DNA of 64,000 bases from an uncultured Syntrophorhabdus sp. (GCA_964477935.1 CAYZFX010000003.1:48577-112576); one strand, 5' to 3'. Positions 1 through 23,166 are shown, counted from the stretch's first letter. A program made the numbers and translations. The notes: generated by a model not told the origin, from the letters alone.

Positions 1-1416
1 GATATTCTCAAAAGCAGGTATAGGAATGGGAAACAGGTGAAAGTCTTCACCATCGGAAGAGCAGGAGAAAACCTGGTCAAGTTTGCTGGGATCGGAAATG
101 ACAAGGGACATTTTGCAGGACGAACCGGGATGGGCGCCTTGATGGGGTCAAAGAAACTGAAGGCCATCGTCGTGCGTGGAAGCGGGTCATGCGAGCCAGC
201 AATGGTTGAAGAATACAATGCCCTCAGACGGGCGCTGATCGCAAAAGTCAATGCCTCTGTGCCTGCACAGGCGCTGAGGCAGATGGGAACCGATTCCGGC
301 ATGGACCTCGGAATGATGACCAACGATGTCCCTATCAAGAATTGGGTCTCTCCTCAGGATTTTGACCTTTCGTCAAATCTTGGAGGCCCCACCCTTACCG
401 AAAAGTATCTTGTGAAGCCCCATGCCTGTTATGCCTGTCCCATCGCGTGCAAGCGGGTGGTCAGGGTAGTCGACGGCCCTTATCAGACAGAGCAGGGACC
501 CGGACCTGAGTATGAGACCTGCTGCACCTTTGGCACGATGATCCTGAACAAAGACTTGGCAGGTGTCATCAAGGCAAATGAGCTCTGTAACAGGGCAGGC
601 ATGGACACCCTCTCAGGAGGGGTGGCCATTGCCTTTGCCTACGAATGCTACGAAAAAGGGATCCTCTCAAAGCAAGATACCGATGGTCTGAAGCTTAAAT
701 GGGGTGAAATCGATCCGGCCCTCCAATTGATTGAGATGATTCAGGAGAGAAAAGGAATAGGCGCGGTTTTAGCCGAGGGAACCAGAGAGGCCGCAAGACG
801 CATCGGAAGGGGAGCGGAGGAGTTCTTGGTCGAGGTGAAGGGGCTTGAGGCGCCCATGCACGACCCGAGGGGATATCATGGAATGGGCCTGGGTTATGCG
901 GTTTCGACAAGGGGAGCGTGCCATCTCCAGCACATGACACTCTATATAGAGCAGGGAATGTCAGCTTTCCCTGAGGCAGGGTTAAAGGCAAGTTACAGAG
1001 GTCCCGTCAGTGAAGGAAAGGCTCAGATGTACTTGATTTCCGAAAATCTTGGCGTCCCCTGCAATTCGGCTTGCCTCTGTATCTTCGTCCTCGGATGTCT
1101 TTCTGCGACTGACTTTGCAGAGATGTTGAGGGTAACAACCGGACACAAAGCGTTCGATGTCCAGGAACTGTTGAAATCCGGCCAGCGAATCAATCTTCTT
1201 AAAAGGACAATCAATTTCATCCTCGGAATGAGGAGAAAGGATGACCGATTGCCCAAAAGAATATTGACCCCCCTTGCCCCCGGAGAAAGCGTGCCTGACA
1301 TTGATCTGATGTTAAAGGAGTATTATGCGCTTCGAGGCCTGGATGAAACAGGCCGTCCGAAAAAGGAAACCCTTGAGGCCGCTGGCTTAAAAGATTTAAT
1401 TCCAAAACTCTATTGA
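1..1416 (+). CDS. Aldehyde:ferredoxin oxidoreductase (tungsten AOR family), 5' partial. The reading frame is open from base 1.
   Basis: The frame runs from the window start to a stop at 1414-1416. The translation resembles AOR-family C-terminal domains (KPHACYACPIACKR, GPEYE, GMDT motifs). The upstream part of the gene lies outside the window. Confidence 0.7.
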   Translation, partial: DILKSRYRNGKQVKVFTIGRAGENLVKFAGIGNDKGHFAGRTGMGALMGSKKLKAIVVRGSGSCEPAMVEEYNALRRALIAKVNASVPAQALRQMGTDSGMDLGMMTNDVPIKNWVSPQDFDLSSNLGGPTLTEKYLVKPHACYACPIACKRVVRVVDGPYQTEQGPGPEYETCCTFGTMILNKDLAGVIKANELCNRAGMDTLSGGVAIAFAYECYEKGILSKQDTDGLKLKWGEIDPALQLIEMIQERKGIGAVLAEGTREAARRIGRGAEEFLVEVKGLEAPMHDPRGYHGMGLGYAVSTRGACHLQHMTLYIEQGMSAFPEAGLKASYRGPVSEGKAQMYLISENLGVPCNSACLCIFVLGCLSATDFAEMLRVTTGHKAFDVQELLKSGQRINLLKRTINFILGMRRKDDRLPKRILTPLAPGESVPDIDLMLKEYYALRGLDETGRPKKETLEAAGLKDLIPKLY

Positions 1417-1427
1417 GGAGGTGCGAG

Positions 1428-1850
1428 ATGGCATACAAGTTTCCAAGCGAGGAATGGATTCAGGAATATCAGAAAGCGATCAATACGAGTGATGCCTACA
1501 AACAATCAGGCTCCACCTGGACCGCGGGGCCTGTCTGTCTGGTCGTCACAGCAAACCCTTCCTTGGGCATCGAAAGAGATGTGGGGATCTGGCTGGGTCT
1601 CCATAAAGGAGTCTGCGAGGAAATTAAAATCGTCACTTCAGAAGAAGCCCAGAAAGCCCCTTTTGTCATCATGGGAGATTATGCAAGATGGAAACAGGTT
1701 GTCCTGGGTGAGCTCGATCCTGTGCAGGGAATGATGCAGGGTAAACTCAAATTGAAGGGCGATCTGCCCACCATCGTCCGCTACGTCAGGGCCTCGCAGG
1801 ATCTAGTTCAATGCGCTTCGAAAGTGGACACCCAGTTTATCGATGACTGA
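1428..1850 (+). CDS. SCP2 (sterol carrier protein 2) domain protein
   Basis: GGAGG at 1416-1422 precedes an ATG at 1428. The C-terminus carries the SCP2 signature GDYARW...GMMQGKLKLKGDLPTIVRY. It follows the AOR gene by 12 nt. Confidence 0.65.
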   Translation: MAYKFPSEEWIQEYQKAINTSDAYKQSGSTWTAGPVCLVVTANPSLGIERDVGIWLGLHKGVCEEIKIVTSEEAQKAPFVIMGDYARWKQVVLGELDPVQGMMQGKLKLKGDLPTIVRYVRASQDLVQCASKVDTQFIDD

Positions 1851-1872
1851 AACATGTTAGGGAGATCCTCCA

Positions 1873-3036
1873 ATGGACTACACGAAAACTCTCAATTTCG
1901 TTTTCAGGCTTCCGACGAAGATCGTGTTCGGACCCGGGGCGGCAAAGGAAATCGGAATGGAAGTGGATGAATTCAAGAGAACCAAGGCGCTGATCGTCAC
2001 CGACCGGGATCTCATAAAAACGGACCTTATTCAAGTTGTTCGAAATGCCTTGGGGTCAAGATGCGCGGGCGTCTTCTCTGACGTTACTCCGGATACAGGT
2101 GTGCATATTGTTAATGCCGGAGCCGAATATGGAAGAGCGGTTGGAGCAGACATATTGGTCAGTGTCGGAGGGGGAAGCACCATAGATACAGCAAAAGGGA
2201 TGGCAATCTGTCTGACAAAAGGCGGCAAGCTCGAAGACCACGTAGGCCTCAATTTCCTCGATGGCCCGATCATGCCCCACATTGCCATCCCCACAACGGC
2301 TGGAACCGGAAGCGAGGTCACTTACGCCGCAGTGATTAAAGATCACGAACAAAAAAGAAAGCTGTTATTTGCAGACAACTACCTCGTCCCCAATGTAGCC
2401 ATCCTCGACCCGAAGATGACGACTGGGATGCCAAAGAGACTAACAGCGGCTACGGGGATGGATGCCTTGAGCCACTGCATCGAAGCGCTTCATTCCATGC
2501 AGAGGGAACCCATCGCAGACGCCCTCGCCTTTCATGGAATAAGGATGATCAGAGAATTTCTTCCAAAGGCAGTCGAAGATGGGGAGGATCTCATCGCCAG
2601 AGGACAGATGCTCATTGCCGCCACCCTTGCAGGAGCCGCCTTTTCGAACTCCCAGCTGGGGATTGTTCATGCCCTTGCACACCCCGTTGGAGCAAAATTC
2701 GGTGTCCCTCATGGCGTGGCCAACAGCATCCTTTTACCGCATTGCATCCTCTACAATCTTGACGCCTGCCCGGATCTTTACGCCCGAATCGCTCAGGCCA
2801 TGGGAAAAGAAGTGAGAGGAATGGACTCCCTGAAGGCGGCGGAACAGGCTGCGGTCGCCATCTGGGAGTTTACTAAAGCCTTAGGCCTGCCCCAGTCTTT
2901 AAGAGAGATGGGTGTGGAAAGATCCATGCTCGCCGAGTGTGCCAATGATGCTCTAATGGACGGAACCATCGTCTATAACCCAAAGCCGATCTTCGATCCG
3001 GATGAGATTTTAAAAATCTACAAGAAAGCACTCTGA
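1873..3036 (+). CDS. Iron-containing alcohol dehydrogenase
   Basis: 387 aa with the Fe-ADH GGGSTIDTAKG motif and conserved His-rich metal-binding region (HALAHPVG...PHG). Confidence 0.85.
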   Translation: MDYTKTLNFVFRLPTKIVFGPGAAKEIGMEVDEFKRTKALIVTDRDLIKTDLIQVVRNALGSRCAGVFSDVTPDTGVHIVNAGAEYGRAVGADILVSVGGGSTIDTAKGMAICLTKGGKLEDHVGLNFLDGPIMPHIAIPTTAGTGSEVTYAAVIKDHEQKRKLLFADNYLVPNVAILDPKMTTGMPKRLTAATGMDALSHCIEALHSMQREPIADALAFHGIRMIREFLPKAVEDGEDLIARGQMLIAATLAGAAFSNSQLGIVHALAHPVGAKFGVPHGVANSILLPHCILYNLDACPDLYARIAQAMGKEVRGMDSLKAAEQAAVAIWEFTKALGLPQSLREMGVERSMLAECANDALMDGTIVYNPKPIFDPDEILKIYKKAL

Positions 3037-3045
3037 TTCAGCTCA

Positions 3046-3471
3046 ATGCCATCTATCACCCTTCTCCAAAACGCAACTGACAGCGGTCTTGCTGTCATGC
3101 TCTCAGAGCTGCTCCGGCAAAACCTCGATCAAAATTCCGAAAGAATAAAAATCTTCGACGCTTTGAAGGCCAGGGTAGTCATAGAAGCCCTCGACATTCA
3201 TACCGTTGTGGGGCTGGAATTTCAACAGGGGAAGCTTACGATCTCAGGAAATACCCCCTCTCCACCCGACCTCCATATCATTACGGATTCGGCAAATATA
3301 CTCGACCTCTGCCTCCTGAAGATCAAATTCGGTCTCCCATACTTTTTTGACGCCAATGGTTTTAAAGTTCTTAAAAAACTCACTACCCGACAACTCATCA
3401 TCAAAGGGTTGCTCCGCCACTTCCCCACCCTTGTTAAACTTACGAAGATTTTCTCCGTTATAAGAAACTGA
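3046..3471 (+). CDS. Hypothetical protein, possible SCP2-like lipid-binding fold
   Basis: 141 aa ORF 9 nt downstream of the ADH. It shows weak SCP2-like patterning (GLEFQQGKLTISG...ILDLCLLKIKFG). The call is tentative. Confidence 0.35.
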   Translation: MPSITLLQNATDSGLAVMLSELLRQNLDQNSERIKIFDALKARVVIEALDIHTVVGLEFQQGKLTISGNTPSPPDLHIITDSANILDLCLLKIKFGLPYFFDANGFKVLKKLTTRQLIIKGLLRHFPTLVKLTKIFSVIRN

Positions 3472-3574: not shown

Positions 3575-4378
3575 TTATAACAAGTTAAATCTTTGATAAA
3601 TCTTTTCGGCAGGAAAAGTCGGCACAAACAGGGTGGGATAAATTAAAGGCAATGATTCGTCTTTTCCGATCACCAGATACCCTTTCTCCCTCAGGCTGTC
3701 GGCAATCTTTTTAAGGACGTTGATCTGACATTCTTTTGAGAAGTAAGTAAAGGCTAAATTCCGGCAAAAGACGATGTCCATTCCTAAAAGGGGGCCCTCT
3801 TCAAGGATATTGTGCTTTCTAAATTCCACACTCTCCCGGATCCTCCTGTCAAGGACGTATGAACCATTTTCGATAGCAAAATATCGTTTTAAGATGTACT
3901 CTGGAATCTCCCGGAGACTGCTCTTCTGATACCTCCCCTCTTCCGCTCTCCGAAGCATTTCCTCGTTGATGTCCGTGGCCAGGATGGAAAGACGAATCTC
4001 CGGATAATCCTTTGCAAATTTCTCTGTCCAGAGAAGTGAGATGCTGTAAGGTTCTTCGCCGCTGGCACATCCGATCGACCAGAGTTTCACTTCCCCTTTC
4101 TCTCTGCTTTTAAGAATCGATGGAAGGATGGAATGTTCGAGGGCACCGAAGACTTCTCTATCCCTGAAAAATCGTGAGATCGTGACCGTGAGGATCTTGG
4201 AGAGATGGCCCCTTTCTTCAGGATCCCTTTGAATCTTTAAGAGGTATTCATTGAAATGAGAAAACCCAACTTCGATGATCCTTCGCTCTATTTTTCGTTT
4301 GATCCCTCTCCTCTGGAAGGGCCGCCATTGAAGACCAAGAAGCGGTGCAACAACTTTGAGGAACTCATCAAAGGACAT
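3575..4378 (-). CDS. CheR-type protein-glutamate O-methyltransferase (SAM-dependent)
   Basis: 267 aa with the CheR signature TVTISRFFRD and a WSIGCASGEEPYS SAM-binding motif. It overlaps the ogt stop by 11 nt. Confidence 0.7.
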   Translation of the reverse strand: MSFDEFLKVVAPLLGLQWRPFQRRGIKRKIERRIIEVGFSHFNEYLLKIQRDPEERGHLSKILTVTISRFFRDREVFGALEHSILPSILKSREKGEVKLWSIGCASGEEPYSISLLWTEKFAKDYPEIRLSILATDINEEMLRRAEEGRYQKSSLREIPEYILKRYFAIENGSYVLDRRIRESVEFRKHNILEEGPLLGMDIVFCRNLAFTYFSKECQINVLKKIADSLREKGYLVIGKDESLPLIYPTLFVPTFPAEKIYQRFNLL

Positions 4379-4886
4379 GGGCCTTTTCGAAATCGAGAAG
4401 CTCTTTTTTCAACCGAAGTCCGTGGCCGAACCCACCCAAGCCACCATGGCTCTCGATCACCCTGTGGCAGGGGATGATCAGAGGGACGGGGTTTGCGCCA
4501 TTCGCATTTCCAACCGCTCGGAAGGCTCTTGGATGGCCGATCATCCGGGCAATCTCCTGATAGGAACGCGTCTCTCCATAAGGAATCCTCCTCAAGGCCA
4601 ACCAGACCTTCTTTTGAAAATGGGTTCCCTGCAGATCCAATTTGCAGTCAAAACGGTGGAGCTTGCCTTCGAGATACTTCTTCAGTTGAAAGAGGATGTT
4701 CTCGTTCTTTCGGTCATCATGCACAATCTCTCCTCGAAATCGCCTTTTCAACTCCTTTAAAAAACTTTTTTCAGGGGTTAAAAAATCCACCATGCAAACC
4801 CCCTTCTCGGTCGAAGCAACAAAGACCTTCTTTAACCATGGCGATTCAAACGAAGAATAATAGATTTTTCCCATCCTTTTCTCCAA
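4368..4886 (-). CDS. ogt: Methylated-DNA--protein-cysteine methyltransferase (Ogt/MGMT)
   Basis: 172 aa with the active-site PCHRV motif and helix-turn-helix (YGETRSYQEIA). Confidence 0.85.
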   Translation of the reverse strand: MEKRMGKIYYSSFESPWLKKVFVASTEKGVCMVDFLTPEKSFLKELKRRFRGEIVHDDRKNENILFQLKKYLEGKLHRFDCKLDLQGTHFQKKVWLALRRIPYGETRSYQEIARMIGHPRAFRAVGNANGANPVPLIIPCHRVIESHGGLGGFGHGLRLKKELLDFEKAHVL

Positions 4887-4901
4887 GTTATCTGTTTTAT
4901 T

Positions 4902-5945
4902 TTACTTCCAGTCTTCTGCCTTCTGGAATCTGTGTTGGGCGGCTTTGATCAGGCCCAATGGGCCGGTCATCATGGTGTTGCCGCCGGGAGCGGCAAACTT
5001 AAAGGGAAGGGAGGTTTCTTTAAAGAGGTCGCGGTTAGGGCCGGTGACCCATACGGAAACTTCTCCAGAAAAAGGAGTCAATGTGATCACTCCATGACCG
5101 TCATCCTCAAAAACCTCTTGCCTCGTCAATGCCCCTTGTGGGAAGCGGCGGAGGTGGTCCTCCAATTTTTTTGGAGTTAACCGGTGGGTATGGTGTTCGT
5201 AAAGCCCCTCAATCTTTCTGTTGATCAGAAGGGCAGCAATCGTATGGCCGTTCCCTGCATTAACAACCAGAGAGGGTTCCTTGATTTCATCCACGCATCC
5301 TAAAATAGCAGAAAAGGCCGTATCCATCACAAGGATAGGAGATAAGGAGGTCCTCCTCACTGCCTTTACGGCCGATTTCATCCGGAGATAACCATCCGGG
5401 ATGGAGGTCTCTGTGAAGTGAAACGACTCCGGCCGGTTATCTTTTTGCAACATCGCCTCCATCTGTTCAAAACGAAAGGTCCGATCGGAAACCTCTTTGG
5501 GGGCCACTCCGTGGTCCTGAACAGCGATGGCGATCACATCGAAGTTAAAATCCTCGCCGAATTGGTTGAGAAATCGCTGAAGGAGAGGAAGGTCAATTTC
5601 GCGGATCTCCAACTCTTGAAACCGGCCCGGACAGGGATTGGGCCCCACCTCGATGCCTATGGCCCGAACCTCCTCGATGTCATTCCGGATCGAATAGGCC
5701 GCAGATTCCTCCATCACCACCCGGTATCCCCTCTGAAGATGGCTTTGAATCGCCCTTCCAATCGATCCTCCGCCAATGGTATCCCCATAGAGATAGAGAT
5801 TCCCTTCGATCTTCCTGATCCTCTCGGCAAACACCTTCGAGGGGGTGGGCAGGACGAGGGTCGTGCAATTCTCGATCTTCTTGTTTGAATCGAAAAGGAG
5901 AATATCCTGTGTTCCTGCCCCGATATCGATGGCCAGAATTTTCAT
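4902..5945 (-). CDS. ASKHA-superfamily (actin/sugar-kinase/Hsp70-like) ATPase, DUF1786-like
   Basis: N-terminal phosphate-1 motif MKILAIDIGAGTQD and a later LVVNAGNGHT motif. The ORF track extends it to 6023, but the M at 5945 has a GGAGA Shine-Dalgarno while the 6023 ATG has none at usable spacing. Confidence 0.5.
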   Translation of the reverse strand: MKILAIDIGAGTQDILLFDSNKKIENCTTLVLPTPSKVFAERIRKIEGNLYLYGDTIGGGSIGRAIQSHLQRGYRVVMEESAAYSIRNDIEEVRAIGIEVGPNPCPGRFQELEIREIDLPLLQRFLNQFGEDFNFDVIAIAVQDHGVAPKEVSDRTFRFEQMEAMLQKDNRPESFHFTETSIPDGYLRMKSAVKAVRRTSLSPILVMDTAFSAILGCVDEIKEPSLVVNAGNGHTIAALLINRKIEGLYEHHTHRLTPKKLEDHLRRFPQGALTRQEVFEDDGHGVITLTPFSGEVSVWVTGPNRDLFKETSLPFKFAAPGGNTMMTGPLGLIKAAQHRFQKAEDWK

Positions 5946-6038
5946 CCCATCTCCAGGATCCGGAGTTTTAAGTTCAGTCTCTCCTTTTTCAGAAATATGT
6001 TCATCTCCATACTTCGAACTCATCCCTCCAAAGGCTCA

Positions 6039-7490
6039 TCACCCTTTGATCACCCCCATGGGCACCAGTTTGACCACTTTAAGGCTGATGCCTGCCTGGT
6101 GGACTACATTGACCACATCATTTACATCTTTATAGGCCTCTGGAATCTCTTCCTGGATCGTCCCTTTGCTGGCACCCATCACAATGATCCCCTTATCTTC
6201 CATCTCTCTCACGAGCGCCCTGCCCTTGGCCGCCTTGATGGCTTGGTGGCGACTCAACACCCTTCCGGCTCCATGGCAAGTTGACCCAAACGTCTCCTCC
6301 ATCGCCCTCTCCGTTCCGACCAGGACGTAAGAACATCGACCCATGTCGCCTGGGATGAGGACAGGCTGCCCGACCGTTTGGTAACCTCTTGGGATGTCCC
6401 GGTGATGAGGTGGAAAGGCCCGGGTCGCTCCTTTCCGATGAACACAAACTCTCCTTTCTTCTCCATTGACCGAATGGGTCTCAATCTTAGCAATATTATG
6501 GCAGACGTCATAGACCAGACTGAGGCCGACGTCCCGCGGACCCCTCTGGAAGACCTGTTCAAAGGTCTCCCTCACCCAGTGGGAGATCATCTGCCGGTTG
6601 GCAAAGGCATAATTGGCGGCACATGCCATCGCTTGAAGATATCGCTCCCCTTCCGGCGAGGTGACAGGAGCGCAGCAGAGCTGAGGATCGGGTAGCTCGA
6701 TGCCGTACTTTTTCGCTGCATTCATCATCACCCGGATATAATCGTCACAGACCTGATGTCCTAAACCCCTTGAGCCGGTATGGACGAGAATGGTCACTTG
6801 GTCCTTCCATAATCCAAAGGTTTGTGCAACCCGTTCATCGAAGACCTCCGCCACATATCCCACCTCTACAAAGTGATTTCCGGACCCGACGGTCCCCAAT
6901 TGGGCCTTTCCCCTTTCCAAGGCCTTTTCAGAGATCTGATCTGGGTCGGCCCCTTCGATACAGCCCGACTCCTCGATGTGTTCGAGATCCTCTACCGTTC
7001 CAAAACCCCTTTCAACCGCCCATCTGGCCCCCTTTTTGAAGACCTGTCTCTCTTCATCCTTACTCAATCTGAGATCCTTCCGATGGGAACCTACGCCCGA
7101 AGGGATGTTGTGAAAGAGGGCTCCTACCAGCTCTTTCATCCTGCCCTCGATCTCCTTGCGGCTCAGACCTGAGCGCATCAGCCTGACCCCTCAGTTGATA
7201 TCATATCCGACCCCTCCGGGCGAAACGATGCCCTCATTCAGATCGAAAGCCGCCACCCCGCCGATGGGAAAACCGTACCCCCAGTGGATATCTGGCATGG
7301 CCAGAGAGGGACCGACGATTCCTGGTAGCCAGGCGACATGGGCGACCTGAGAGAGGCTCTGATCCTTGCGGATATCCTCCAGCATCCTTTCGTCCGCATA
7401 GACGATCCCATCGGTCCTCATCTTCCCCTCCTGTGGAATCCTCCACCGGTAGTCGTCGACCTTCTGGATTTTGATCTTCTCATCACCCAT
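6039..7490 (-). CDS. rtcB: RNA-splicing ligase RtcB, read through one in-frame TGA (7191-7193) as a putative selenocysteine
   Basis: ORFs 7191..7490 (RtcB N-terminus, [13 protein letters not shown]...GGVGYDIN) and 6039..7178 (RtcB C-terminus, [18 protein letters not shown]) are in the same frame. They are separated only by a TGA aligned with the conserved metal-ligand Cys of DINCGVRL. A GGUC-loop hairpin follows at 7157-7177. Confidence 0.75.
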
Positions 7491-7510
7491 CGTCTCTCAC
7501 CCCTTTCCTT

Positions 7511-7969
7511 TCAGAGATCCAGGATTACCCTGGCCTTCCATTCTCCATCCCTTTGTTTGACCTCGATCTGATGGTAGGTGACCGCCTTCACCACGGTTTT
7601 GATCTCGTGGATCTCCTCCTGAAAGAACTCTCCCTTAACGACCGCCCGCAGACCCTCCCCACCCACGGATTGAATGTCAAATCGATTGAAGAGGAGGGTT
7701 TCAACCTCATGGAGATAGAGGAGTTCGTTCAACCACTCGACCATCAATCGTTCCAGAGGCGCGGGAGGAAGCTCGATCAACCGCTCCTCTCTGGGCCTGA
7801 CCTTCTTAATATCGGTGATCAGGCTGAAGAAGGCCTCTCCCGCATTCTCAAAGAGGGTTTTAAGATCCTTCCCGTAAATGATCAATCCGATATCGGCCGT
7901 GTGATCGAGGATCTCAAAATGCCTCCCCTCCCTCCCAGTTCTAGCCCCTGAATGTGACGGTGATGCCAA
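7511..7969 (-). CDS. Archease (RtcB activator)
   Basis: 152 aa with the archease motif FEILDHTADIG. It sits 20 nt upstream of rtcB on the same strand. Confidence 0.8.
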   Translation of the reverse strand: MASPSHSGARTGREGRHFEILDHTADIGLIIYGKDLKTLFENAGEAFFSLITDIKKVRPREERLIELPPAPLERLMVEWLNELLYLHEVETLLFNRFDIQSVGGEGLRAVVKGEFFQEEIHEIKTVVKAVTYHQIEVKQRDGEWKARVILDL

Positions 7970-7972
7970 TGC

Positions 7973-8398
7973 TTAACCTGTTCTCTTCCTTTCAACCCTT
8001 GAAAGGAAAGACTCTTTCGAAACTAAGACCCTCTCATGCTCGCCTTCAGCCACCTTCTCCTTCTCATCATAGGCGTCCACCAGAAAGAAGAGCCGGTTAC
8101 CCTGGACCTCTTTCAGTAGGGCATGACTGACCACCCTCATCCCGGGAGGGGTGGGAGCCAGATGTCTCATCCTGATCCAGGTTCCGAGGCTCAACCGGTC
8201 TGGAGGAAGGACTTCCTGAATGGCTCGAATCGCCGCCTCCTCCAGAAGCTGAATCAATCTTGGGGTCGAGAGGACGTGGAGCGGAAGATCCCCTATGTGG
8301 CTGACCAGATCCTCCTCTTTCACGATCATCTCGGCTTTTCCAGTCAATCCTGGCACCATCACGATGTACTCCTTTTCGCCCCAGGGTTTATGAGACAT
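7973..8398 (-). CDS. Hotdog-fold thioesterase family protein
   Basis: 141 aa with pattern resembling small acyl-CoA thioesterases. It lies 3 nt from the archease start. Confidence 0.5.
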   Translation of the reverse strand: MSHKPWGEKEYIVMVPGLTGKAEMIVKEEDLVSHIGDLPLHVLSTPRLIQLLEEAAIRAIQEVLPPDRLSLGTWIRMRHLAPTPPGMRVVSHALLKEVQGNRLFFLVDAYDEKEKVAEGEHERVLVSKESFLSRVERKRTG

Positions 8399-8414
8399 CC
8401 CTCCGATTTTACCG

Positions 8415-8864
8415 TCAGAATTCGGTCAGGACCTCGCTGTCATAGATCTTTTCCAGCCTTTCCTTATGGGTTGACTCTTCCTGGGCAAGGAACAGCAACA
8501 GTTTTTTCATGTCCGAATCCGTAACCAGCTGTGCAGTGGATTCATAAAGCCTCTGGGATTTCTCCTCGTTCTTGATCGCCGCCCTCAGTAGCTCCCCGTA
8601 GGTCAATCCCGGACCGAAGGGGATGTCCTCAATGATTTCGCTGATCCCCAGACCCTTCGTCTCCCTCACCTCTACCTGACCGACCTGGCTGAGGTCCAAT
8701 TGTTCAAGCCTCCGACGATGGCCCTCCTCTTCCTTGGCCAGTTCCTCGAAGAATTTCTTCACCCCGGGTCTGGATTGATCGGCAGCGATCCTGTAAGTGG
8801 CTGCCGCATCGGCTTCCTTTCGAATCGCAAACCTCAAAATCTCTTCCACGCTATTCAGTCTCAT
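8415..8864 (-). CDS. Ferritin-like / rubrerythrin-family diiron protein
   Basis: 149 aa with two E-x-x-H motifs (EEEGHRRRLEQ and EESTHKERLEK) typical of ferritin-like diiron centres. Confidence 0.55.
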   Translation of the reverse strand: MRLNSVEEILRFAIRKEADAAATYRIAADQSRPGVKKFFEELAKEEEGHRRRLEQLDLSQVGQVEVRETKGLGISEIIEDIPFGPGLTYGELLRAAIKNEEKSQRLYESTAQLVTDSDMKKLLLFLAQEESTHKERLEKIYDSEVLTEF

Positions 8865-9099
8865 CCTCTCCCTCCTTCTGAAATGATCGCTTCACCTCTG
8901 CAATCAACTTCGCCGCATCTTCGCGCCACCCCTCCGGAACCATCACCCTTGCCCATCCCTTCTGGGGGAGATAAAGTCCATCATAGGCCGTATCGAGAAA
9001 GGGACGGATCAAATACGGGATCGCCGCTTCTCTTAGGGCCTGCACGATCCGATCCCCTTCAAAACGGTGATTTATCACCCCTGCCTCCAACCAGCGCAC
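8851..9099 (-). CDS. Small DUF2007-like (PII-like putative signal-transducing) protein. GTG start.
   Basis: 82 aa ORF that overlaps the next gene by 14 nt. GGAGG lies 7 nt upstream of the GTG. It is the first gene of a tight eight-gene minus-strand cluster. Confidence 0.4.
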   Translation of the reverse strand: MRWLEAGVINHRFEGDRIVQALREAAIPYLIRPFLDTAYDGLYLPQKGWARVMVPEGWREDAAKLIAEVKRSFQKEGEDETE

Positions 9100-9125: not shown

Positions 9126-9155
9126 ATTATAACGAAGCCGGAGGCAATAGAAAAC
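9126..9155 (-). promoter_or_regulatory. Putative sigma70-type promoter of the DUF2007..cheR operon (perfect -10 TATAAT, weak -35)
   Basis: The minus-strand sequence reads TTTTCT-N17-TATAAT about 30 nt upstream of the GTG start. The MITE copy at 9167 lies about 12 bp upstream of the -35 box. Confidence 0.35.
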
Positions 9156-9400: not shown

Positions 9401-9435
9401 TCAGAATGAAAATTCGGTTGAAAATTATCGAATTC
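9401..9435 (+). promoter_or_regulatory. Promoter of the XRE-cupin regulator, with an inverted repeat AATTCG-N12-CGAATT overlapping the -35 box (possible autoregulatory operator)
   Basis: TTGAAA at 9408-9413, a 16 nt spacer and TATAAT at 9430-9435, 44 nt before the ATG. The inverted repeat is at 9401-9406 and 9419-9424. Confidence 0.5.
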
Positions 9436-9478
9436 AGATTATAATGGGTTCATACCTCAAAAAGGACAGGGGGAGACT

Positions 9479-10033
9479 ATGGCGATGAAGAAGGTGGATG
9501 AAAAATCCTTCGGGGCAAAGATGAAACAGCTCAGGCAGTTGAGGAAACTCACTTTTGAGGCCCTGGCCAACAAAACAGGGCTGTCCAATCGTTACCTCAG
9601 GGAAATCGAAGAGGGTAAAATTATCCCCCCTGTCTCTGCGGTCATTCAGATTTCAAAAGCCTTATCCATCGACTCCGGCTCTTTCCTCTCGGCGGAGGAA
9701 CAAGAGGCACTCGTCAAAAAGAGGAAGGAGAGCTTTTATAAACGGACTCAGGCCTACTCCTATAAGACCCTCACCCCTGATGCGGAAACAAAACATATGA
9801 AGGCCTTCCTCGTCACGATCGATCCCAAACAGGACCATCGGATGGTGGAATACCGCCACGAGGGCGAGGAATTCATCTATGTGTTGAAGGGGGAGATAGA
9901 GGTCCGGGTGGGCGAGAATGAGAATCGCCTCAAAAAAGGGGGGACCCTCCATTTCGATTCAGGGATCCCTCACAAACTCCGCAATCTGGGCGATGAGGAG
10001 GCCAAACTCTTGGTGGTATTATACACCCCTTGA
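9479..10033 (+). CDS. XRE-family HTH transcriptional regulator with C-terminal cupin domain
   Basis: N-terminal HTH (LRKLTFEALANKTGLSNRYLREIE) and C-terminal cupin (EFIYVLKGEIEVRVGE...GGTLHFDSGIPH). Confidence 0.85.
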   Translation: MAMKKVDEKSFGAKMKQLRQLRKLTFEALANKTGLSNRYLREIEEGKIIPPVSAVIQISKALSIDSGSFLSAEEQEALVKKRKESFYKRTQAYSYKTLTPDAETKHMKAFLVTIDPKQDHRMVEYRHEGEEFIYVLKGEIEVRVGENENRLKKGGTLHFDSGIPHKLRNLGDEEAKLLVVLYTP

Positions 10034-15915: not shown

Positions 15916-17115
15916 TTATCGCCCCAGCCTCTTCCTGAACTCCTCCTTGAGCATGGGGACGACAGTGAAGAGATCGCCCACAATCCCATAGGTGGCAATT
16001 TTGAAGATGGGAGCCTCAGGGTCCTTATTGATGGCGACAATGATGTCCGAGGTCTTCATTCCGGCCTGGTGCTGGATGGATCCCGAAATCCCGCAGGCAA
16101 TATAGATCTTCGGCCTGACCGTCCGGCCAGTCTGCCCCACCTGATGCTCGTAGGAGATCCATCCCGCATCCACCGCAGCCCGAGAGGCTCCGACCGCCGC
16201 GCCCAGGACTTCCGCCAGTTCCCGGACCACCCTGAAGTTTTCTGCGCCTCCGATCCCTCTGCCTCCTGAAACGATGATCTCCGCATCCGCAAGGTTGACC
16301 GTTTCAGTGCCCCTGATAAATTCAAGAACCTTTGTCCGGATCTGATCCTCGGTCATGGGCAGGGGCTCCCGGATGACCTCCCCCATTCTCCCATCATCCC
16401 TCCCGGGCATGGGAAAAACTTTCGGCCTCACCGTGGCCATCTGGGGGCGGTAATTGGGGTAGTCGAGGATGGTGGCCATGATATTTCCACCAAATGCGGG
16501 CCTTGTCTGTTTCAAATACTTCGTCTCCGGATCGATCTCCAGGCCCGTGCAGTCTGCCGTCAAGCCGGTCTCGAGGGTCGTGGCCACGGTGCCTGCAAAG
16601 TCTCTGCCCTGGATCGTGGCGCCTATGAGGACGATTTCAGGCCTGTATTTCCGGATGAGGTTGACCGCAGCACTGGCGTAAGGGTCGGTCCGGTAGGGCT
16701 CAAGCAATGGACTTTCTGTGGCATAGACGATTTCGGCTCCATAGGCGATCGCCTCCTTGACGAACTCCTCCACGTCGTTGCCCAAAACGAATCCACATAA
16801 TTTGCATCCGAGGGCATCGGCAAGCTTCCTCCCTTCGCCGAGAAGCTCGAAGGAGACACTCGAGACCTTTCGGTCCTCATGCTCAATGAAGACCCAGACA
16901 TCCTTATAGTTGGCGGTGTCGATCGTTACCGCCTTTTCATCCTTCTCCAAGGTGATGGCGTTAACCGGACAGACCTCCACGCAGGCCCCGCAGAAGGTGC
17001 ATTTTTCGTCAACGACCGCCACCCCCTCCTTCATGCTGAGGGCCCCGAAGGGACAGGCAGGGATACAGGCTTCACATCCCGTGCAGGTATTTTTATCGAT
17101 CAACAGGTTGGCCAT
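15916..17115 (-). CDS. etfA: Electron transfer flavoprotein alpha subunit with N-terminal 2x[4Fe-4S] ferredoxin domain
   Basis: Two CxxCxxCxxxCP motifs in the first 55 aa are followed by EtfA FAD-binding domains. Confidence 0.85.
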
Positions 17116-17166
17116 GCTCTCTCCTCCTCTATTCCTATGAATTGGTATTCCAGGGAGTCGCTTATC

Positions 17167-17979
17167 TTACTTGATGAATTTCGATTCCATCAATTTATCC
17201 ACCAGAAGGGGTACGACCTCGGTCAGCTCCCCTTTCAGGATCTCGCCTCCTCCTCTTGGCTCGGGGGTAAAGATTTTGGTCACCCAGGTGGGAGATCCCT
17301 TCAACCCGATGCGATTCTCGTCGGCATGGATATCTTTGGCAGTTAAAGTGGGGATCTGGGCCTTGGCCGCCTTTTTGATGCCGAGGAGCGAAGGGAGCCT
17401 CGGTTCGTTGATATCCTTGACCACGGTGATCAGGGCAGGTAGAGTAGCCTCGACCACCTCTTTTCCGTGCTCCAGAAGTCGCTCCACGATAATCTTCTTC
17501 TGTTCATTATTGATCTCCCTCACCTTACAGACATAGGTCAGCTGAGGAATCCCGAGCCGGGTGGCGATCCCTGGTCCAACCTGGGCCGTGTCTCCGTCAA
17601 TGGCCTGCTTGCCGCAGATCACAAGATCGGCTCCCCCGATATATTCGATCGTCTTGGAAAGGGCATAGGCGGTGGCTAAGGTATCCGACCCGGCTAAGGC
17701 CTTGTCTGAAAGGAGATAGACCTTGTCGCAACCGACCGCCAGGGCGTTCTTCAGGATCTCGACCGCCTGAGGAGGTCCCATGGTGATGACGTGGACCTCG
17801 CCGCCATACTTCTCTTTGGTCCGAAGCCCCTCTTCGATGGCGAACTCATCGAAGGGGTTGGTGATGCTGGCCACCCCCTCCCGGATCAGTGTATTGGTTT
17901 CGGGGTTGATCTTCACCTCTGCGGTCGTATCGGGAACCTGTTTGATGCAGACGACGATCTTCACTTCTCTCCTCCTCAT
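17167..17979 (-). CDS. etfB: Electron transfer flavoprotein beta subunit
   Basis: 270 aa with the EtfB N-terminus (MKIVVCIKQVPDT). It overlaps the crotonase stop by 4 nt. Confidence 0.85.
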   Translation of the reverse strand: MRRREVKIVVCIKQVPDTTAEVKINPETNTLIREGVASITNPFDEFAIEEGLRTKEKYGGEVHVITMGPPQAVEILKNALAVGCDKVYLLSDKALAGSDTLATAYALSKTIEYIGGADLVICGKQAIDGDTAQVGPGIATRLGIPQLTYVCKVREINNEQKKIIVERLLEHGKEVVEATLPALITVVKDINEPRLPSLLGIKKAAKAQIPTLTAKDIHADENRIGLKGSPTWVTKIFTPEPRGGGEILKGELTEVVPLLVDKLMESKFIK

Positions 17980-18758
17980 CTCCCCTTAAAAACGGGTTTT
18001 CTCTTCTCCACAAAGGCCCGCATCCCCTCTTTCTGATCCTCCGAGGCGAAGCCGATCCCGAAGGCATAGGCCTCGAGATTGCAGGCCTCTGTAAGGTCCA
18101 TATTGAAGCCGCTATCAATCACCATCTTCGCCAGCCTCACCCCGACCGCCCCATTGGCAGCGATCTGTAGCGCAACCTTCTTCGTCTCATCCATGAGGGT
18201 GGCCTGAGGAACGACCCTGTTGACGATGCCCATCTCCAGGGCCTCCTGGGCGCTGATCATCTTGCCGGTGTAGATCAATTCCTTTGCTTTGGCCTTTCCG
18301 ATCAGACGAGGGAGTCGCTGGGTACCGCCGAAGCCGGGAAAGATTCCGAGGGTCACCTCCGGGAGGCCAAATCTGGCATTCTCCGAGGCATAGATGAAAT
18401 CGCAGGCCAGGGCGATCTCCGTTCCTCCACCCAAGGCGAACCCGTTCACGGCGGCAATCACCGGACAGTGAAAATCCTGCAACATTTTCAGGGTATGGTG
18501 GCCTGCCCGTGAAAAATTGAGGGCCTCGATCGAATTCATCTCCTTCATCTCGAGAATATCGGCTCCCGCCACAAAGGCCTTCTCTCCCGCTCCGGTGACG
18601 ATGAGGACCTTCAACTCCGGATGTTCCTTGGCCTCATTGAGAGCCATCTGGATCTCCTGAAGGGTCTCCCGGTTTAGGGCGTTGAGCGCCTTCGGTCGGT
18701 TGATCGTCAGAATTCCGATCTCCCCTTCAAATGAGACTAAAATATTTTTGTATTCCAT
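17976..18758 (-). CDS. Enoyl-CoA hydratase (crotonase family)
   Basis: 260 aa with crotonase-fold motifs (AFVAGADI, ALGGGTEIALACD). Confidence 0.85.
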   Translation of the reverse strand: MEYKNILVSFEGEIGILTINRPKALNALNRETLQEIQMALNEAKEHPELKVLIVTGAGEKAFVAGADILEMKEMNSIEALNFSRAGHHTLKMLQDFHCPVIAAVNGFALGGGTEIALACDFIYASENARFGLPEVTLGIFPGFGGTQRLPRLIGKAKAKELIYTGKMISAQEALEMGIVNRVVPQATLMDETKKVALQIAANGAVGVRLAKMVIDSGFNMDLTEACNLEAYAFGIGFASEDQKEGMRAFVEKRKPVFKGR

Positions 18759-18845
18759 TCTTCCTCCTATTGGGTGTCCGTGTCTGTTTTCCGTGTCCGT
18801 ATTCTTTTACGGTCTCGTGACACTCGACACGGTCACGGGTCACTC

Positions 18846-20129
18846 CTAACTCCTTTCGACAATCATGGCCATTCCCTGGCCGCCACCGATGCAAAGCGTA
18901 GCCAGTCCGAGTTCCACGTTCCTCCTTCTCATCTCGTAAAGGAGCGAAACGATTAACCTGGCCCCAGTGCATCCGATCGGATGGCCTAAAGAGATCCCGC
19001 TTCCATTCACATTGGTCTTCTCAAGATCGAACTTCAGCTCCCGAATACAGGCGATCGCCTGGGAGGCAAATGCCTCATTCAGCTCGGTCAGTCCAATGTC
19101 TCCGAGAGAAAGGCCTGCCTTCTTCAAAACCTTTCTCACCGCGGGAATGGGACCCAGACCCATGTAGGCTGGATCGATCCCAGCAGAGGCATAGGCCTTG
19201 ATCTTCCCCAAGGGCTCCAATCCGAATTCTTTCGCCTTTTCCCTCGACATCAGAAGGACCGCGGCGGCGGCGTCATTGATCCCGGAGGCATTCCCTGCCG
19301 TCACCGTGCCCCCGGATTTGAAGGCCGTGGGGAGCTTGGCCATCTTCTCAAGAGTGGTATCCATCGGTCTTTCGTCCGTTTCAAAGAAGAGAGGTTCTCC
19401 TTTTTTCTGGGGAATGGCCACAGGAACGATCTCTTCCTTAAAAATCCCCTTCTGGATCGCAGCCCTTGCCCTCTGATGGCTAAGCAAGCCCAACTCATCC
19501 TGTTCCTTTCTCGAGATGCCGTACTTTTCGGCAATATTTTCAGCCGTCATCCCCATATGGTATCCATAGAAGATCTCAAAGAGCCCGTCGAAGACCATGA
19601 GATCGACCATCTCCTGGTTGAACATCCTGGCACCCCACCGTCCCTGGGGAAAGGCATAGGGGACCTGGCTCATGTTCTCCATCCCTCCCGCGATAACCAC
19701 CTCAGCTTCGCCTGCTTGAATGGCCTGCGCTCCCAGGGCAATCGCCTTGAGACCCGAGGCACAGACCTTATTGATGGTAAAGGCGGTTGTCTCCTTTGGG
19801 ACGCCGCCGAGAATGAGGGCCTGCCGGGCCGGATTCTGTCCCTGTCCGGCCTGAAGCACATTGCCCATAATCACCTCGTCCACCTCGATCTCTTTGAGAG
19901 AGGCATCCCATTGATCATAACCCTTTTCAAGGTCGGTCATCCCCGTCCCTTTCAGCAGGTCCGGAGCGATCTCAACATCCTCCTTTCTGGCCACAGGCTT
20001 CAGGCCCGCCTTTTTCAAAACCTCTCGGATCACAGTGGCTCCTAACTTCACCACCGGGACATCTTTTAGCGAACCTCCAAAACTGCCGATAGCCGTCCTC
20101 GCCCCGGTTACAATTACAACCTCTCTCAT
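18846..20129 (-). CDS. Acetyl-CoA C-acetyltransferase (thiolase)
   Basis: 427 aa with thiolase active-site regions (NKVCASGLKA, GHPIGCTGAR). Confidence 0.9.
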   Translation of the reverse strand: MREVVIVTGARTAIGSFGGSLKDVPVVKLGATVIREVLKKAGLKPVARKEDVEIAPDLLKGTGMTDLEKGYDQWDASLKEIEVDEVIMGNVLQAGQGQNPARQALILGGVPKETTAFTINKVCASGLKAIALGAQAIQAGEAEVVIAGGMENMSQVPYAFPQGRWGARMFNQEMVDLMVFDGLFEIFYGYHMGMTAENIAEKYGISRKEQDELGLLSHQRARAAIQKGIFKEEIVPVAIPQKKGEPLFFETDERPMDTTLEKMAKLPTAFKSGGTVTAGNASGINDAAAAVLLMSREKAKEFGLEPLGKIKAYASAGIDPAYMGLGPIPAVRKVLKKAGLSLGDIGLTELNEAFASQAIACIRELKFDLEKTNVNGSGISLGHPIGCTGARLIVSLLYEMRRRNVELGLATLCIGGGQGMAMIVERS

Positions 20130-20656: not shown

Positions 20657-22159
20657 TTAATAATAACGTTTCTCTTCGATATGGTCTTCGGGGAGGTCGA
20701 TCCCCCATTCATTGAGGATTTTTGAAACGGCCTTCTCGCCGCTCTCGATGCAGTTCGGAAGTCCCACCCCCCTGTAACTTCCCCCAGCGAGGGCAAGCCC
20801 TTTGATTTCTGCACTCCGGTTTTCGACCAACTCCACACGGTCGAGGTGGCCCATGGTGTACTGAGGCATGCCCCTGGGCCATCGGTAGACCCGGGTGAAG
20901 AGGGGCTTGGCCTTCGGATTGAGCCCGAGGATCTCGCAAAACTCTTGCCTTACTAACTCGACGAGTTCTTCATCCGAGCGTTCCAGGACCTCCTGATTGT
21001 GGGGCCCTCCCACAAACCCGCGGAGAAGGACCTTCCCCTTCGGGGCCCTGCCCGGCCATTTGGTCGAGGAGAAGGTGGCCGCCATCAAGGAACGCCCCTC
21101 CACCAGGGGACAGAGAACTCCAAAGGCGTTGAGATCGAAACCCACGTCCGACTCTTTAAAGGCCAATGAAATCGTCGCCGAAGAAGACCACGGGATGGCC
21201 GCGAGGGCATCGGCGATGGCCTCGTCATGGGGCCTGACAAGGGGTTCAGCAGCCCAGGATTCGGTCGCGAGGATAACCCCATCGCCTTCGAGCGTTGAAC
21301 CATCCGATAATTGAACCACCCACCTGTTCTGCGCCAGAGAACGAAGGGAGAGGACGGTGACGCCCGTTCGCATCCTGTCTCGACCGGCCACCTCTGCCAT
21401 CCGGTCGGTCAGCTGTTGCATTCCGTTGACGAAGGAGGTGAAGAAGGTTCGGGGCTTCTGCCCCGGTTTGGGCGGGTATTTTCGCCGCATCTCCTCCGCC
21501 ATCCGGCGGATCGCAAGAAACCCCCTCATAAGCGACCCATACTTTTGCTCCATGTCGAGGAGGCGGGGAAATGTGGCGGCAAGAGACATCAGGGCAGGAT
21601 CTGAGGCATGGATACCGCCCACGAGTGGCTCCGCCAGGCGATCCAGACATTCTCTCCCCATCCGCCGCACCACGAAACTCTCGAGCGTCTCGTCGTTGAG
21701 CTCTCCCGGCTTCACCTTCTTGGCCGGGATGAAGAACTCCAGACCCATTCGGATCTTTGCAGACCATGAGAAGAGACCGGTGGTGACAAAGGGGAGGAAC
21801 TTCGTTGGAGCAAACATCATGACCCCATCGGGAAGGGCATGGAGTTTTCCGCGCGAGAGGATCCAGGTCTTCCGCCGAGAATCATCGGTGGGCAACTCGT
21901 CATCGAAAATCCCAATCAACTTAGCAATCCGGTGACATGCGGGTTTCTCCGTCAGAAAACAGTCCGGCCCCCCATCGACGATGAACCTACCCTCTCCCTC
22001 CGGATCGGGCAGGATCTCCGTGAGAATCTTTCCTCCGAGTCGGGGATCTTTCTCGACCAAAATAAACTCAACCGCGTGGCCGAGGTCTGCGGCCCTCTTG
22101 ACCTTGAAGGCAGAAGCCAGGCCAGCAATGCCCCCACCGATGATCAGGATTCGTCTCAT
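20657..22159 (-). CDS. hemY: Protoporphyrinogen/coproporphyrinogen oxidase (HemY-type FAD amine-oxidase family)
   Basis: 500 aa with an N-terminal FAD dinucleotide-binding motif (ILIIGGGIAGLASAF). The ATG overlaps the hemH stop. Confidence 0.75.
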   Translation of the reverse strand: MRRILIIGGGIAGLASAFKVKRAADLGHAVEFILVEKDPRLGGKILTEILPDPEGEGRFIVDGGPDCFLTEKPACHRIAKLIGIFDDELPTDDSRRKTWILSRGKLHALPDGVMMFAPTKFLPFVTTGLFSWSAKIRMGLEFFIPAKKVKPGELNDETLESFVVRRMGRECLDRLAEPLVGGIHASDPALMSLAATFPRLLDMEQKYGSLMRGFLAIRRMAEEMRRKYPPKPGQKPRTFFTSFVNGMQQLTDRMAEVAGRDRMRTGVTVLSLRSLAQNRWVVQLSDGSTLEGDGVILATESWAAEPLVRPHDEAIADALAAIPWSSSATISLAFKESDVGFDLNAFGVLCPLVEGRSLMAATFSSTKWPGRAPKGKVLLRGFVGGPHNQEVLERSDEELVELVRQEFCEILGLNPKAKPLFTRVYRWPRGMPQYTMGHLDRVELVENRSAEIKGLALAGGSYRGVGLPNCIESGEKAVSKILNEWGIDLPEDHIEEKRYY

Positions 22160-23142
22160 TCGCTCTCCTCCGTTCTTCCTGACAGATCGAAAGACCGACC
22201 TGCTGTCGTCTCTTCAATGGCCAAAGCCAGGGCCTCGAGAAACGTTTCGGAGCAGTTCAGCGATGGGGTTCGTCGTAATCGCATCCCGAGCGATTCAGCC
22301 TTCTCCCTATAAACCCGATCGATATCGTAGAGAATTTCAATGTGATCGGACACAAAACCGATCGGCACGAGGAGAATGTCTCGCACTCCGATCTTGCTTA
22401 ACTCCCCGAGGACACTCTCGACCTCCGGACCGATCCACCTCTCCCTTCCGCTTCCCTTGCTCTGAAAGGCCATGTGCCAGAAAAAAGGGCCCACCCGTTT
22501 CATCACTCCCTCCACGCACGCCTGCATGTCGTGCCCATAAGGATCCTCTCGGATCACCGACTCCGGAAGGCTATGGGCCGTAAAGAGGAGGTGGACCTTC
22601 CTTCTCTCTTCGGAAGGAAATTGTTTCAGCCCCTCTTCGATGCGTTCGGCTATTGATTGGAGAAAGAGGGGATGGAGATGCCACCCCTTGATCAGAAAGG
22701 TTCTCAACCGATTTCCCAGAATCTGATTGGCCCGTTCCAGTTCCTTCCTGTAGGCATCCGTGGTATAGCGCGATCGAAAAGGAACCATCGGAACCGCGAC
22801 GACCACCTCAAGGCCATCCCGAAGGATCTCTTCCAGGGTCTCCTCGATCAAGGGATGGCTATAGCGCATGCCCACATAGGATCTGAATCGATGACCCCTG
22901 GCGTTCAGTCTCCCTTCCAACGCCTTCGCCTGTTCCTCCGTGATGGCTAAAAGAGGCGAGGCCCCTCCGATCTGACGATACCGACCTCTGACCGCCTCGA
23001 CCATTTCCGGAGAGGGTTTTTGACCCAAAAGGCGTGTCATCATGAACTCCACCTCTTCAAGGGATCGGGGACCGCCAAAGGCCAATAGAAGGAGGGCCTT
23101 CTCCATAGGGGCTCGAAAAAAAAGTTTCGGTTGACCCTTCAT
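22156..23142 (-). CDS. hemH: Ferrochelatase
   Basis: 328 aa with ferrochelatase family features (LLLAFGGP, FTAHSLPE). The start may be the internal M at about 23106. Confidence 0.85.
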   Translation of the reverse strand: MKGQPKLFFRAPMEKALLLLAFGGPRSLEEVEFMMTRLLGQKPSPEMVEAVRGRYRQIGGASPLLAITEEQAKALEGRLNARGHRFRSYVGMRYSHPLIEETLEEILRDGLEVVVAVPMVPFRSRYTTDAYRKELERANQILGNRLRTFLIKGWHLHPLFLQSIAERIEEGLKQFPSEERRKVHLLFTAHSLPESVIREDPYGHDMQACVEGVMKRVGPFFWHMAFQSKGSGRERWIGPEVESVLGELSKIGVRDILLVPIGFVSDHIEILYDIDRVYREKAESLGMRLRRTPSLNCSETFLEALALAIEETTAGRSFDLSGRTEESE

Positions 23143-23166
23143 GGAGGTGGGCTTGGTGGCTTAACC

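Follow-up and report, generated by a model that had tools for sequence, protein, structure and literature searches.

The RNA ligase RtcB and its activation cofactor archease are encoded together in a tRNA-splicing and RNA-repair operon described in P. horikoshii and in many bacteria and archaea (PMC3973293, PMC4604427). Cys98 of RtcB ligates both Mn2+ ions, and its Ala mutants are dead in the archaeal, E. coli, and human enzymes (PMC10630183). The locus presented here lies in a 64,000-nt stretch of DNA from an uncultured Syntrophorhabdus sp. (GCA_964477935.1 CAYZFX010000003.1:48577-112576), referred to below as the window, and resembles this operon in having archease directly upstream of rtcB on the same strand and in encoding a full-length RtcB in which the Asp, the three His, and the guanylylated His are kept. 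It differs in that the bridging Cys is replaced by a UGA codon accompanied by a hairpin resembling a selenocysteine insertion sequence (SECIS), and in that the pair sits among six further genes not described with it.

The rtcB gene of the window is predicted to encode a selenoprotein, and we put the probability of this at about 0.9. The locus as a whole is likely to be a lineage-specific, co-directional cluster of eight genes built around the widespread archease-rtcB pair, with rtcB as the selenoprotein gene. Related loci from genomes and metagenome contigs are designated by L-numbers (e.g., L001, L083).

A UGA codon at the metal-bridging position of RtcB

The features of the rtcB gene relevant to this reading are:

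6039-7490, minus strand: rtcB, 3'-phosphate/5'-OH RNA ligase, 483 codons via an in-frame UGA at codon 100 (PF01139, 7e-179)
7191-7193, minus strand: in-frame TGA, predicted selenocysteine (Sec) codon U100, aligning with the metal-bridging Cys98 of P. horikoshii RtcB
7158-7176, minus strand: SECIS-like hairpin GCGCUCA-GGUC-UGAGC(C)GC, apical loop GGUC at 7169-7166

An earlier interpretation made from the DNA alone (the sequence-only reading) had proposed eight co-directional open reading frames (ORFs) on the minus strand; all eight are found where it had placed them, but rtcB is broken under the standard code by the in-frame TGA, which had been overlooked. This codon splits the ORF into 99 and 383 codons, and the window gene has been deposited as two fragments of 99 aa and 379 aa. 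The predicted RtcB aligns end to end with T. thermophilus 2epg (1.5e-186) and P. horikoshii 1uc2 (3e-177)/4dwq, and the match to PF01139 spans profile positions 1-426 of 426. Its residues D97, H206, H237, H331, and H406 correspond to Asp95, His203, His234, His329, and the guanylylated His404 of the P. horikoshii enzyme. The Cys98 position is occupied by TGA and not by TGY, and the bridging Cys of the family is therefore absent as encoded; a metal-bridging residue of this kind would be present only if UGA were decoded as Sec, a chemically analogous ligand.

The survey set comprised 80 RtcB loci from species-representative genomes of GTDB, five of which had no match to the motif. TGA was found at this position in 12 loci and TGC or TGT in 63 (13 TGA vs. 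63 TGY with the window included). The TGA loci belong to Syntrophaceae-like and other Thermodesulfobacteriota, Desulfarculaceae, Acidobacteriota, and Thermodesulfovibrionales; Thermodesulfobacteriota, Acidobacteriota, and Nitrospirota include selenoprotein-rich groups. A DNA pattern specific for the TGA form matches at least 120 metagenome contigs, yielding 115 distinct downstream sequences, and among the metagenome matches listed the frame 3' of the TGA stays open for 379-383 codons wherever the contig is long enough. Between the window and its relatives nonsynonymous divergence (dN) lies in the range of 0.07-0.13 for the parts of the gene before and after the TGA alike, with synonymous divergence (dS) saturated. 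An ATG lies five codons 3' of the TGA, and this Met is not conserved, being Leu, Ile, or Val in many sequences.

In the protein database the position is Cys in 119 of 119 full-length homologues carrying the motif, a uniformity to be expected, since gene callers split the Sec forms. In a neighbour-joining tree the Sec-type RtcBs are scattered among the Cys-type ones at several points, indicating repeated interconversion. Judging from the compared sequences, the TGA in rtcB is not an accident. A general reassignment of UGA to a sense codon was ruled out, since TGA is the commonest stop codon in the window, ending 27 of its 58 genes.

A SECIS-like hairpin downstream of the UGA

The hairpin sequence (GCGCUCAGGUCUGAGCCGC, 7176-7158) starts at nt 18, with the U of UGA counted as nt 1, and forms a 5 + 2 bp stem with one bulged C. 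Its apical loop GGUC starts 21 nt after the UGA, and the local energy is -9.8 kcal/mol. The consensus for bacterial SECIS elements (bSECIS) comprises a loop of 3-9 nt, an upper stem of 4-16 bp, a G in the first two loop positions, a distance of 16-37 nt from the UGA, and a minimum free energy (MFE) not above -7.5 kcal/mol (PMC13188914); the rtcB hairpin agrees with it in every respect.

A hairpin was counted as lying in this register if its stem had at least 5 bp and its loop started at nt 24-26. Such hairpins are present in 77 of the 128 Sec-type and in 4 of the 63 Cys-type sequences (Fisher p = 7.5e-14). The variants show compensatory stems (GCGUUCC/GGAACGC, GCGCUCC/GGAGCGC, GAAGACC/GGUCUUC, ACGGACC/GGUCUGU, and CGGCUCA/UGAGCCG), with the loops GGUC, GGUU, GGGCU, and GGUCU. 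In the 128-sequence alignment the covariation score is 0.228 vs. 0.083 in shuffles, none of the 500 shuffles reaching it; a single fixed structure under-counts the pairing, as the variants pair in two registers, one of which has the bulged C and the other lacks it. Constraint is also seen at the level of codons: among the five nearest relatives, codon identity at conserved residues is 87% in the six hairpin codons vs. 44% gene-wide (p = 2.8e-6).

Three of the four Cys-type exceptions, the TGC-containing rtcB genes in L001:10203-10262, L009:490-549, and L013:1602-1661, keep the same or a near-identical hairpin (GCGCUCAGGUCUGAGCCGC, GCGCUCCGGUCUGGAGCGC). From their sequence, these hairpins look like fossil SECIS elements left after a recent Sec-to-Cys conversion. 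The RSGLSR peptide is kept in 19 Cys-type proteins that are 81-83% identical to the window RtcB; the Cys-type RtcB of L001 shows 83% identity to it.

A second class of TGA-containing rtcB genes (L054:2799-2858, L108, L109, L114, L116, and about 20 other metagenome loci) encodes an RSNLTK-like peptide and has no GGUC hairpin. The stem in this class reaches 15-17 bp and carries an A-rich loop of 6-9 nt; it may represent a distinct SECIS type. Neither a SECIS family nor a Y RNA was detected by Rfam scans of the rtcB region by E-value and of the whole window by gathering score; these matched only three tRNAs and, by chance, one long non-coding RNA.

Predicted decoding of the UGA and alternative explanations

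In the proposed mechanism, SelB with Sec-tRNA(Sec) would bind the hairpin and insert Sec at the UGA, giving a full-length ligase of 483 residues. The selenolate of Sec100 would bridge the two metal ions in place of the thiolate, archease would promote guanylylation of His406 as in characterised RtcBs, and the enzyme would, like known RtcBs, ligate 2',3'-cyclic-phosphate or 3'-phosphate ends to 5'-OH ends. The benefit of Sec would most likely be resistance of an oxidation-prone ligand to irreversible metal-catalysed over-oxidation, and/or an altered metal affinity or preference, because archaeal RtcB purified in air has its active-site Cys oxidised, and in humans this residue needs protection by PYROXD1. 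The presence in the cluster of a rubrerythrin-like diiron protein with two ExxH motifs fits the oxidative-stress theme, as circumstantial evidence.

Several observations weigh against the selenoprotein reading. The global ViennaRNA MFE fold of 51- to 67-nt segments often prefers alternative structures that hide the hairpin, which was shown by fixed-register and local folding analysis. About a quarter of the Sec-type sequences (about 25, including L054) fold into another, longer stem whose A-rich loop, at nt 31-34, is outside the consensus loop rule. The 64-kb window and 30 related loci yielded neither tRNA-Sec nor selA, selB, or selD, and the Sec machinery of the host is thus assumed; nor did they yield a second selenoprotein gene, the window containing no credible other gene with TGA read-through. 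Moreover, an engineered P. horikoshii RtcB with Sec98 was recovered as a cleaved fragment (PMC4150793), and therefore Sec is not automatically a benign substitute.

If the TGA were a true stop, rtcB would be a pseudogene or the product of a sequencing or assembly error, or it would specify split polypeptides of 99 aa and 379 aa that reassemble. The two ORFs given by automated annotation, the ATG shortly past the TGA, and the Sec machinery not being seen in the window agree with such an explanation, but more than 130 independent sequences, belonging to several phyla, have TGA at this very codon, and both halves of the gene are under strong purifying selection and free of frameshifts. Re-initiation is left unsupported by the lack of conservation of the Met after the TGA, a split at this point would deprive the enzyme of a metal ligand that is essential, its replacement by Ala abolishing activity, and the conserved, covarying hairpin downstream of the TGA is essentially missing where the codon specifies Cys. 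We regard a true stop as extremely improbable.

The UGA might also be recoded to a residue other than Sec, through near-cognate read-through with Trp, Cys, or Arg, or through insertion of Cys by the Sec machinery, the hairpin then serving only to stimulate read-through or to attenuate rtcB expression at the level of translation. DNA does not reveal which residue is inserted, a subset of sequences has the non-canonical long stem with the A-rich loop, and the artificial U98 RtcB was unstable, all of which leave room for such recoding. Against it stands the presence of Cys in every homologue without TGA (63/63 genome loci, 119/119 proteins), the classic signature of a Sec/Cys pair, as well as the agreement of the main hairpin with the SelB-type bSECIS consensus in both loop sequence and spacing. 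The BSepDB paper, in addition, ranks Desulfobacterota among the top selenoprotein organisms. Recoding to another residue is accordingly considered very unlikely, and Sec remains the preferred reading of codon 100.

Genes of the cluster

In the order of transcription, the cluster consists of the following genes, rtcB being located between archease and the DUF1786 gene:

8851-9099, minus strand: DUF2007-like small protein, the first gene of the cluster (PF09413 2e-4, below gathering score); GTG start, GGAGG ribosome-binding site (RBS)
8415-8864, minus strand: rubrerythrin/ferritin-like four-helix-bundle protein (PF02915 8e-17); two ExxH motifs (EEGH, ESTH), no rubredoxin domain
7973-8398, minus strand: FlK-type hotdog thioesterase (PF22636 3e-30), conserved in the clade only
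7511-7969, minus strand: archease, RtcB activation cofactor (PF01951 3e-44; NCBIfam NF001617 142.9 vs. cutoff 126)
4902-6023, minus strand: DUF1786 protein with an ASKHA-type DIGAGT motif (PF08735 5e-75)
4368-4886, minus strand: ogt, O6-alkylguanine-DNA alkyltransferase, Cys type (PF01035, DNA_binding_1, 2.5e-34; TIGR00589 111.9 vs. cutoff 46.4); IPCHRVI, containing the PCHR acceptor-Cys motif
3575-4378, minus strand: CheR-type S-adenosylmethionine-dependent methyltransferase (PF01739 3e-50), overlapping ogt by 11 nt

All families named in the sequence-only reading were borne out by Pfam, DUF2007 falling only just under the gathering score. Of the two assignments singled out there for checking with profile models, DUF1786 was thus confirmed, while for DUF2007 the window protein remains below the gathering score and its L157 orthologue lies above it; the orthologues of this small protein in the relatives are 55-68% identical to it. 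In line with the description of the methyltransferase as CheR-like but without chemotaxis context, the neighbouring genes that were examined included no che genes. The product scores 94.7 against the CheR equivalog model NCBIfam NF007902 (cutoff 435) and is not a CheR equivalog; its N-terminal CheR_N domain, with 18.6, is under the cutoff of 27. A 141-aa protein encoded at 3046-3471 on the plus strand, convergent with the methyltransferase gene, has no Pfam match and is 74% identical and syntenic in L081.

When the longest ORFs are taken, the gaps from the DUF2007-like gene to cheR are -14, 16, 3, 20, 15, 15, and -11 nt, in agreement with the range of -14 to 20 nt and the 11-nt cheR/ogt overlap claimed earlier; the gap of 20 nt is that between the end of the archease gene and the start of rtcB. 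The 14-nt overlap of the rubrerythrin-like and DUF2007 genes is kept in relatives (-5 to -11 nt). Likewise, ogt and cheR still overlap in many relatives (-2 to -8 nt), some having instead a gap of 41-207 nt. The true start of the DUF1786 gene is probably at 5945, giving the 347-aa form annotated at NCBI, with an RBS present at both candidate starts; with this start the gap between rtcB and the DUF1786 gene grows from 15 nt to about 93 nt.

Promoters and a candidate regulator

Upstream of the cluster, and divergent from it, the following features are located:

9126-9154, minus strand: promoter-like site of the cluster, in which the -35 is weak (TTTTCT) and the -10 is a perfect TATAAT (9131-9126)
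9418-9445, plus strand: near-consensus sigma-70 promoter TTGAAA-16-TATAAT of the XRE-cupin gene (score 11/12), in a block invariant in six aligned intergenic regions
9479-10033, plus strand: divergent XRE-cupin regulator (HTH_3 + Cupin_2, Pfam)

The promoter-like region that had been noticed at 9126-9155 is real as a sequence feature, its perfect TATAAT being conserved in five relatives. It is followed by the GGAGG and the GTG start, and L001, L003, L008, L081, and L084 share the TTCGTTATA(T)AAT block. A consensus scan detected no terminator-like sites on the minus strand within the cluster. By such scans the cluster displays the sequence features of a single operon: its genes share a strand, overlap or lie close together, have a single promoter upstream, and are not interrupted by a terminator. 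The six genes other than archease and rtcB are probably co-transcribed with this pair from the -10 box at 9131-9126.

The XRE-cupin protein, 74-92% identical in relatives, is the best-conserved protein of the neighbourhood and is retained beside DUF2007-archease-rtcB in a sister lineage. It is a natural candidate regulator because the two conserved promoter blocks share an intergenic region, and the cluster is possibly under its control. The intergenic region between the cluster and the XRE-cupin gene has 379 nt in the window, 140-250 nt more than in most relatives.

Conservation and modularity of the cluster

The pairing of rtcB with archease, regarded as established in the sequence-only reading, holds widely, archease adjoining rtcB in 69 of 80 genome loci and in 95 of 123 metagenome loci. 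The genes for DUF1786, Ogt, the CheR-like methyltransferase, FlK, rubrerythrin, and DUF2007 are found near rtcB only in the 3-5 closest genome loci, whose RtcBs are 79-83% identical to that of the window. In 76 of the 80 loci archease is the only recurrent companion of rtcB. About 35 further examples from the clade of the closest loci come from the neighbourhoods of DUF1786 homologues and from metagenome contigs, and the arrangement is seen in about 38 contigs, all in one clade of Thermodesulfobacteriota; the best 120 DUF1786 homologues listed are all at least 70% identical. Within this clade the order DUF2007-rubrerythrin-FlK-archease-rtcB-DUF1786-ogt-cheR is stable, with the accessory proteins merely 55-75% identical. 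Conservation of the neighbourhood had been proposed as a test of the arrangement: within one lineage the order does recur, in about 38 contigs or genomes, but not beyond that lineage. The genes flanking the cluster on the other strand (XRE-cupin, DUF4124/Asp-protease, ubiE, GNAT, GATase, AOR, SCP2, and Fe-ADH) are equally conserved in the clade, and therefore plain synteny explains the conservation of the cluster equally well.

The linkage of the additional genes is thus limited to one clade and, within it, the genes are separable. In L083 rubrerythrin-FlK and DUF1786-ogt are present, with archease-rtcB and cheR missing. The sister lineage (L157, L193, L091) keeps only XRE-cupin<>DUF2007-archease-rtcB(Sec), with a transglutaminase-like gene downstream of rtcB in L157. 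In L081:9181-9777 and L082:2801-3397, which represent a Lake-type metagenome relative, a toxin-antitoxin-like DUF433/DUF5615 pair is located between the DUF1786 gene and ogt. About 11 contigs carry two extra genes between FlK and archease, one encoding an unannotated protein of about 160 aa (158 aa) and the other of the Spore_YtfJ family (L084:5109-5958, L083:6819-7662). In L083 this extra pair directly precedes the DUF1786 gene, because archease-rtcB is missing there.

The sequence-only reading had seen the cluster as an integrated operon in which RNA ligation by RtcB/archease, DNA dealkylation by Ogt, the CheR-type methyltransferase, and the ASKHA ATPase act jointly, or under regulation by methylation, as a combined module for the repair of nucleic-acid damage or stress. 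The tight or overlapping gaps without a minus-strand terminator inside, the single conserved -10 box with a divergent regulator upstream, and the order kept in about 38 contigs despite protein identities of 55-75% and saturated synonymous sites speak in its favour, as do the conserved ogt/cheR and DUF2007/rubrerythrin overlaps, which suggest translational coupling. Outside the clade, however, none of the 76 other RtcB loci has DUF1786, ogt, cheR, FlK, or rubrerythrin beside rtcB, the flanking genes of the other strand are just as syntenic, and archease-rtcB and cheR are missing from L083, which has the rest. Some relatives have the cluster interrupted by the toxin-antitoxin pair or by the insertion with the YtfJ gene, and the sister lineage carries the transglutaminase-like gene after rtcB instead. 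There is no known biochemical link among these families, and a literature search found nothing on DUF1786. An integrated repair operon is therefore weakly supported, joint action of these activities is unlikely, and the functional unity of the eight genes is doubtful. The six other genes are best read as clade-specific additions, independently gained and lost, that form a loose stress and maintenance cluster and not an obligatory multi-enzyme pathway.

Other features of the window

Elsewhere in the window, a beta-oxidation-type block at 15916-20129 on the minus strand encodes enoyl-CoA hydratase, thiolase, and both subunits of an electron-transfer flavoprotein (ETF), the alpha subunit carrying a 2x[4Fe-4S] ferredoxin domain at its N-terminus; this gene content, along with the AOR and Fe-ADH genes at 37-3036, fits a syntroph-like anaerobe. 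A haem-biosynthesis trio is located at 20657-24495 on the same strand and consists of a protoporphyrinogen-oxidase-like amine oxidase, ferrochelatase, and uroporphyrinogen decarboxylase (URO-D). The URO-D ORF overlaps an M17 aminopeptidase ORF by about 250 nt, and its start is probably further downstream, since the Pfam match begins at residue 96. A 305-aa ORF at 29925-30842 on the minus strand overlaps tRNA-Leu (30760-30848); it is probably either spurious or called from the wrong start.

Significance and comparison with known systems

Searches of the literature on RtcB together with selenocysteine or selenoproteins did not find a natural Sec-RtcB, but only the engineered P. horikoshii U98 variant (PMC4150793). 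Among the more than 110 families of prokaryotic selenoproteins catalogued in a review of May 2026, there is no entry for RtcB, ligase, splicing, or PF01139 (PMC13188914). RtcB is not mentioned in the text of the deep-Sep and BSepDB papers, its absence from BSepDB itself being unverified, and NCBIfam has no selenoprotein RtcB model. A natural Sec-RtcB is thus, provisionally, probably undescribed. If real, it would provide matched pairs of Sec and Cys enzymes, some more than 80% identical, which could be used to test whether selenium protects a metal-ligand residue from oxidation or retunes the specificity for metal and NTP. It would also extend selenium biology from redox enzymes to RNA repair and add one more family to the prokaryotic selenoproteome, and it exposes a systematic annotation error, Sec-rtcB genes being entered in databases as a pair of truncated ORFs of about 99 and 379 aa. 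The cluster as such matters less, as a testable, lineage-restricted hint that RNA repair and DNA dealkylation may be governed, along with a diiron protein, by one regulator.

In some selenoenzymes of bacteria, such as formate dehydrogenase H (Sec-Mo) and [NiFeSe] hydrogenase (Sec-Ni), Sec takes the place of a metal-binding Cys. With these the window rtcB shares a UGA at the position of a catalytic metal ligand, the coexistence of Cys-type homologues, and a SECIS, here a predicted one, within the ORF directly downstream. The GGUC loop of the window, closed by an A-U pair, presumably resembles the element of E. coli fdhF. RtcB, unlike either of them, is not a redox enzyme but ligates RNA in a GTP-dependent manner and has a binuclear Mn2+ site.

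Other RNA-repair operons are E. coli rtcBA-rtcR and Salmonella rsr-yrlBA-rtcBA. These resemble the window locus in that a stress-linked RNA-repair ligase is encoded in an operon with a dedicated regulator gene adjacent. They differ from it in that the window cluster is without RtcA, the sigma-54 regulator RtcR, Ro, and Y RNA, has the XRE-cupin protein as its candidate regulator, and contains archease.

The 2026 table of selenoprotein families also includes Ogt, as a Sec-containing methylated-DNA-protein-cysteine methyltransferase (PMC13188914). The window cluster shares an ogt gene with this family, but its Ogt is of the Cys type (PCHR), the predicted selenoprotein being RtcB.

A parallel to the proposed role of Sec is found in human RTCB, whose conserved active-site Cys is protected by the flavoprotein PYROXD1 from oxidative, metal-induced inactivation (PMC12263435; reviewed in PMC10630183). 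The weak point, an oxidation-prone active-site Cys of RtcB, is the same in both cases. Metazoa guard this Cys with a partner protein, whereas the window, whose cluster contains no PYROXD1-like gene, would replace it with Sec. Taken together, RtcB probably represents an unrecognised and widespread family of bacterial selenoproteins and the first selenoenzyme of RNA repair and ligation, in which Sec would stand in for the bridging Cys, repeated Sec/Cys interconversion would have left fossil SECIS elements behind, and selenium would offer an alternative to PYROXD1 under oxidative or metal stress.

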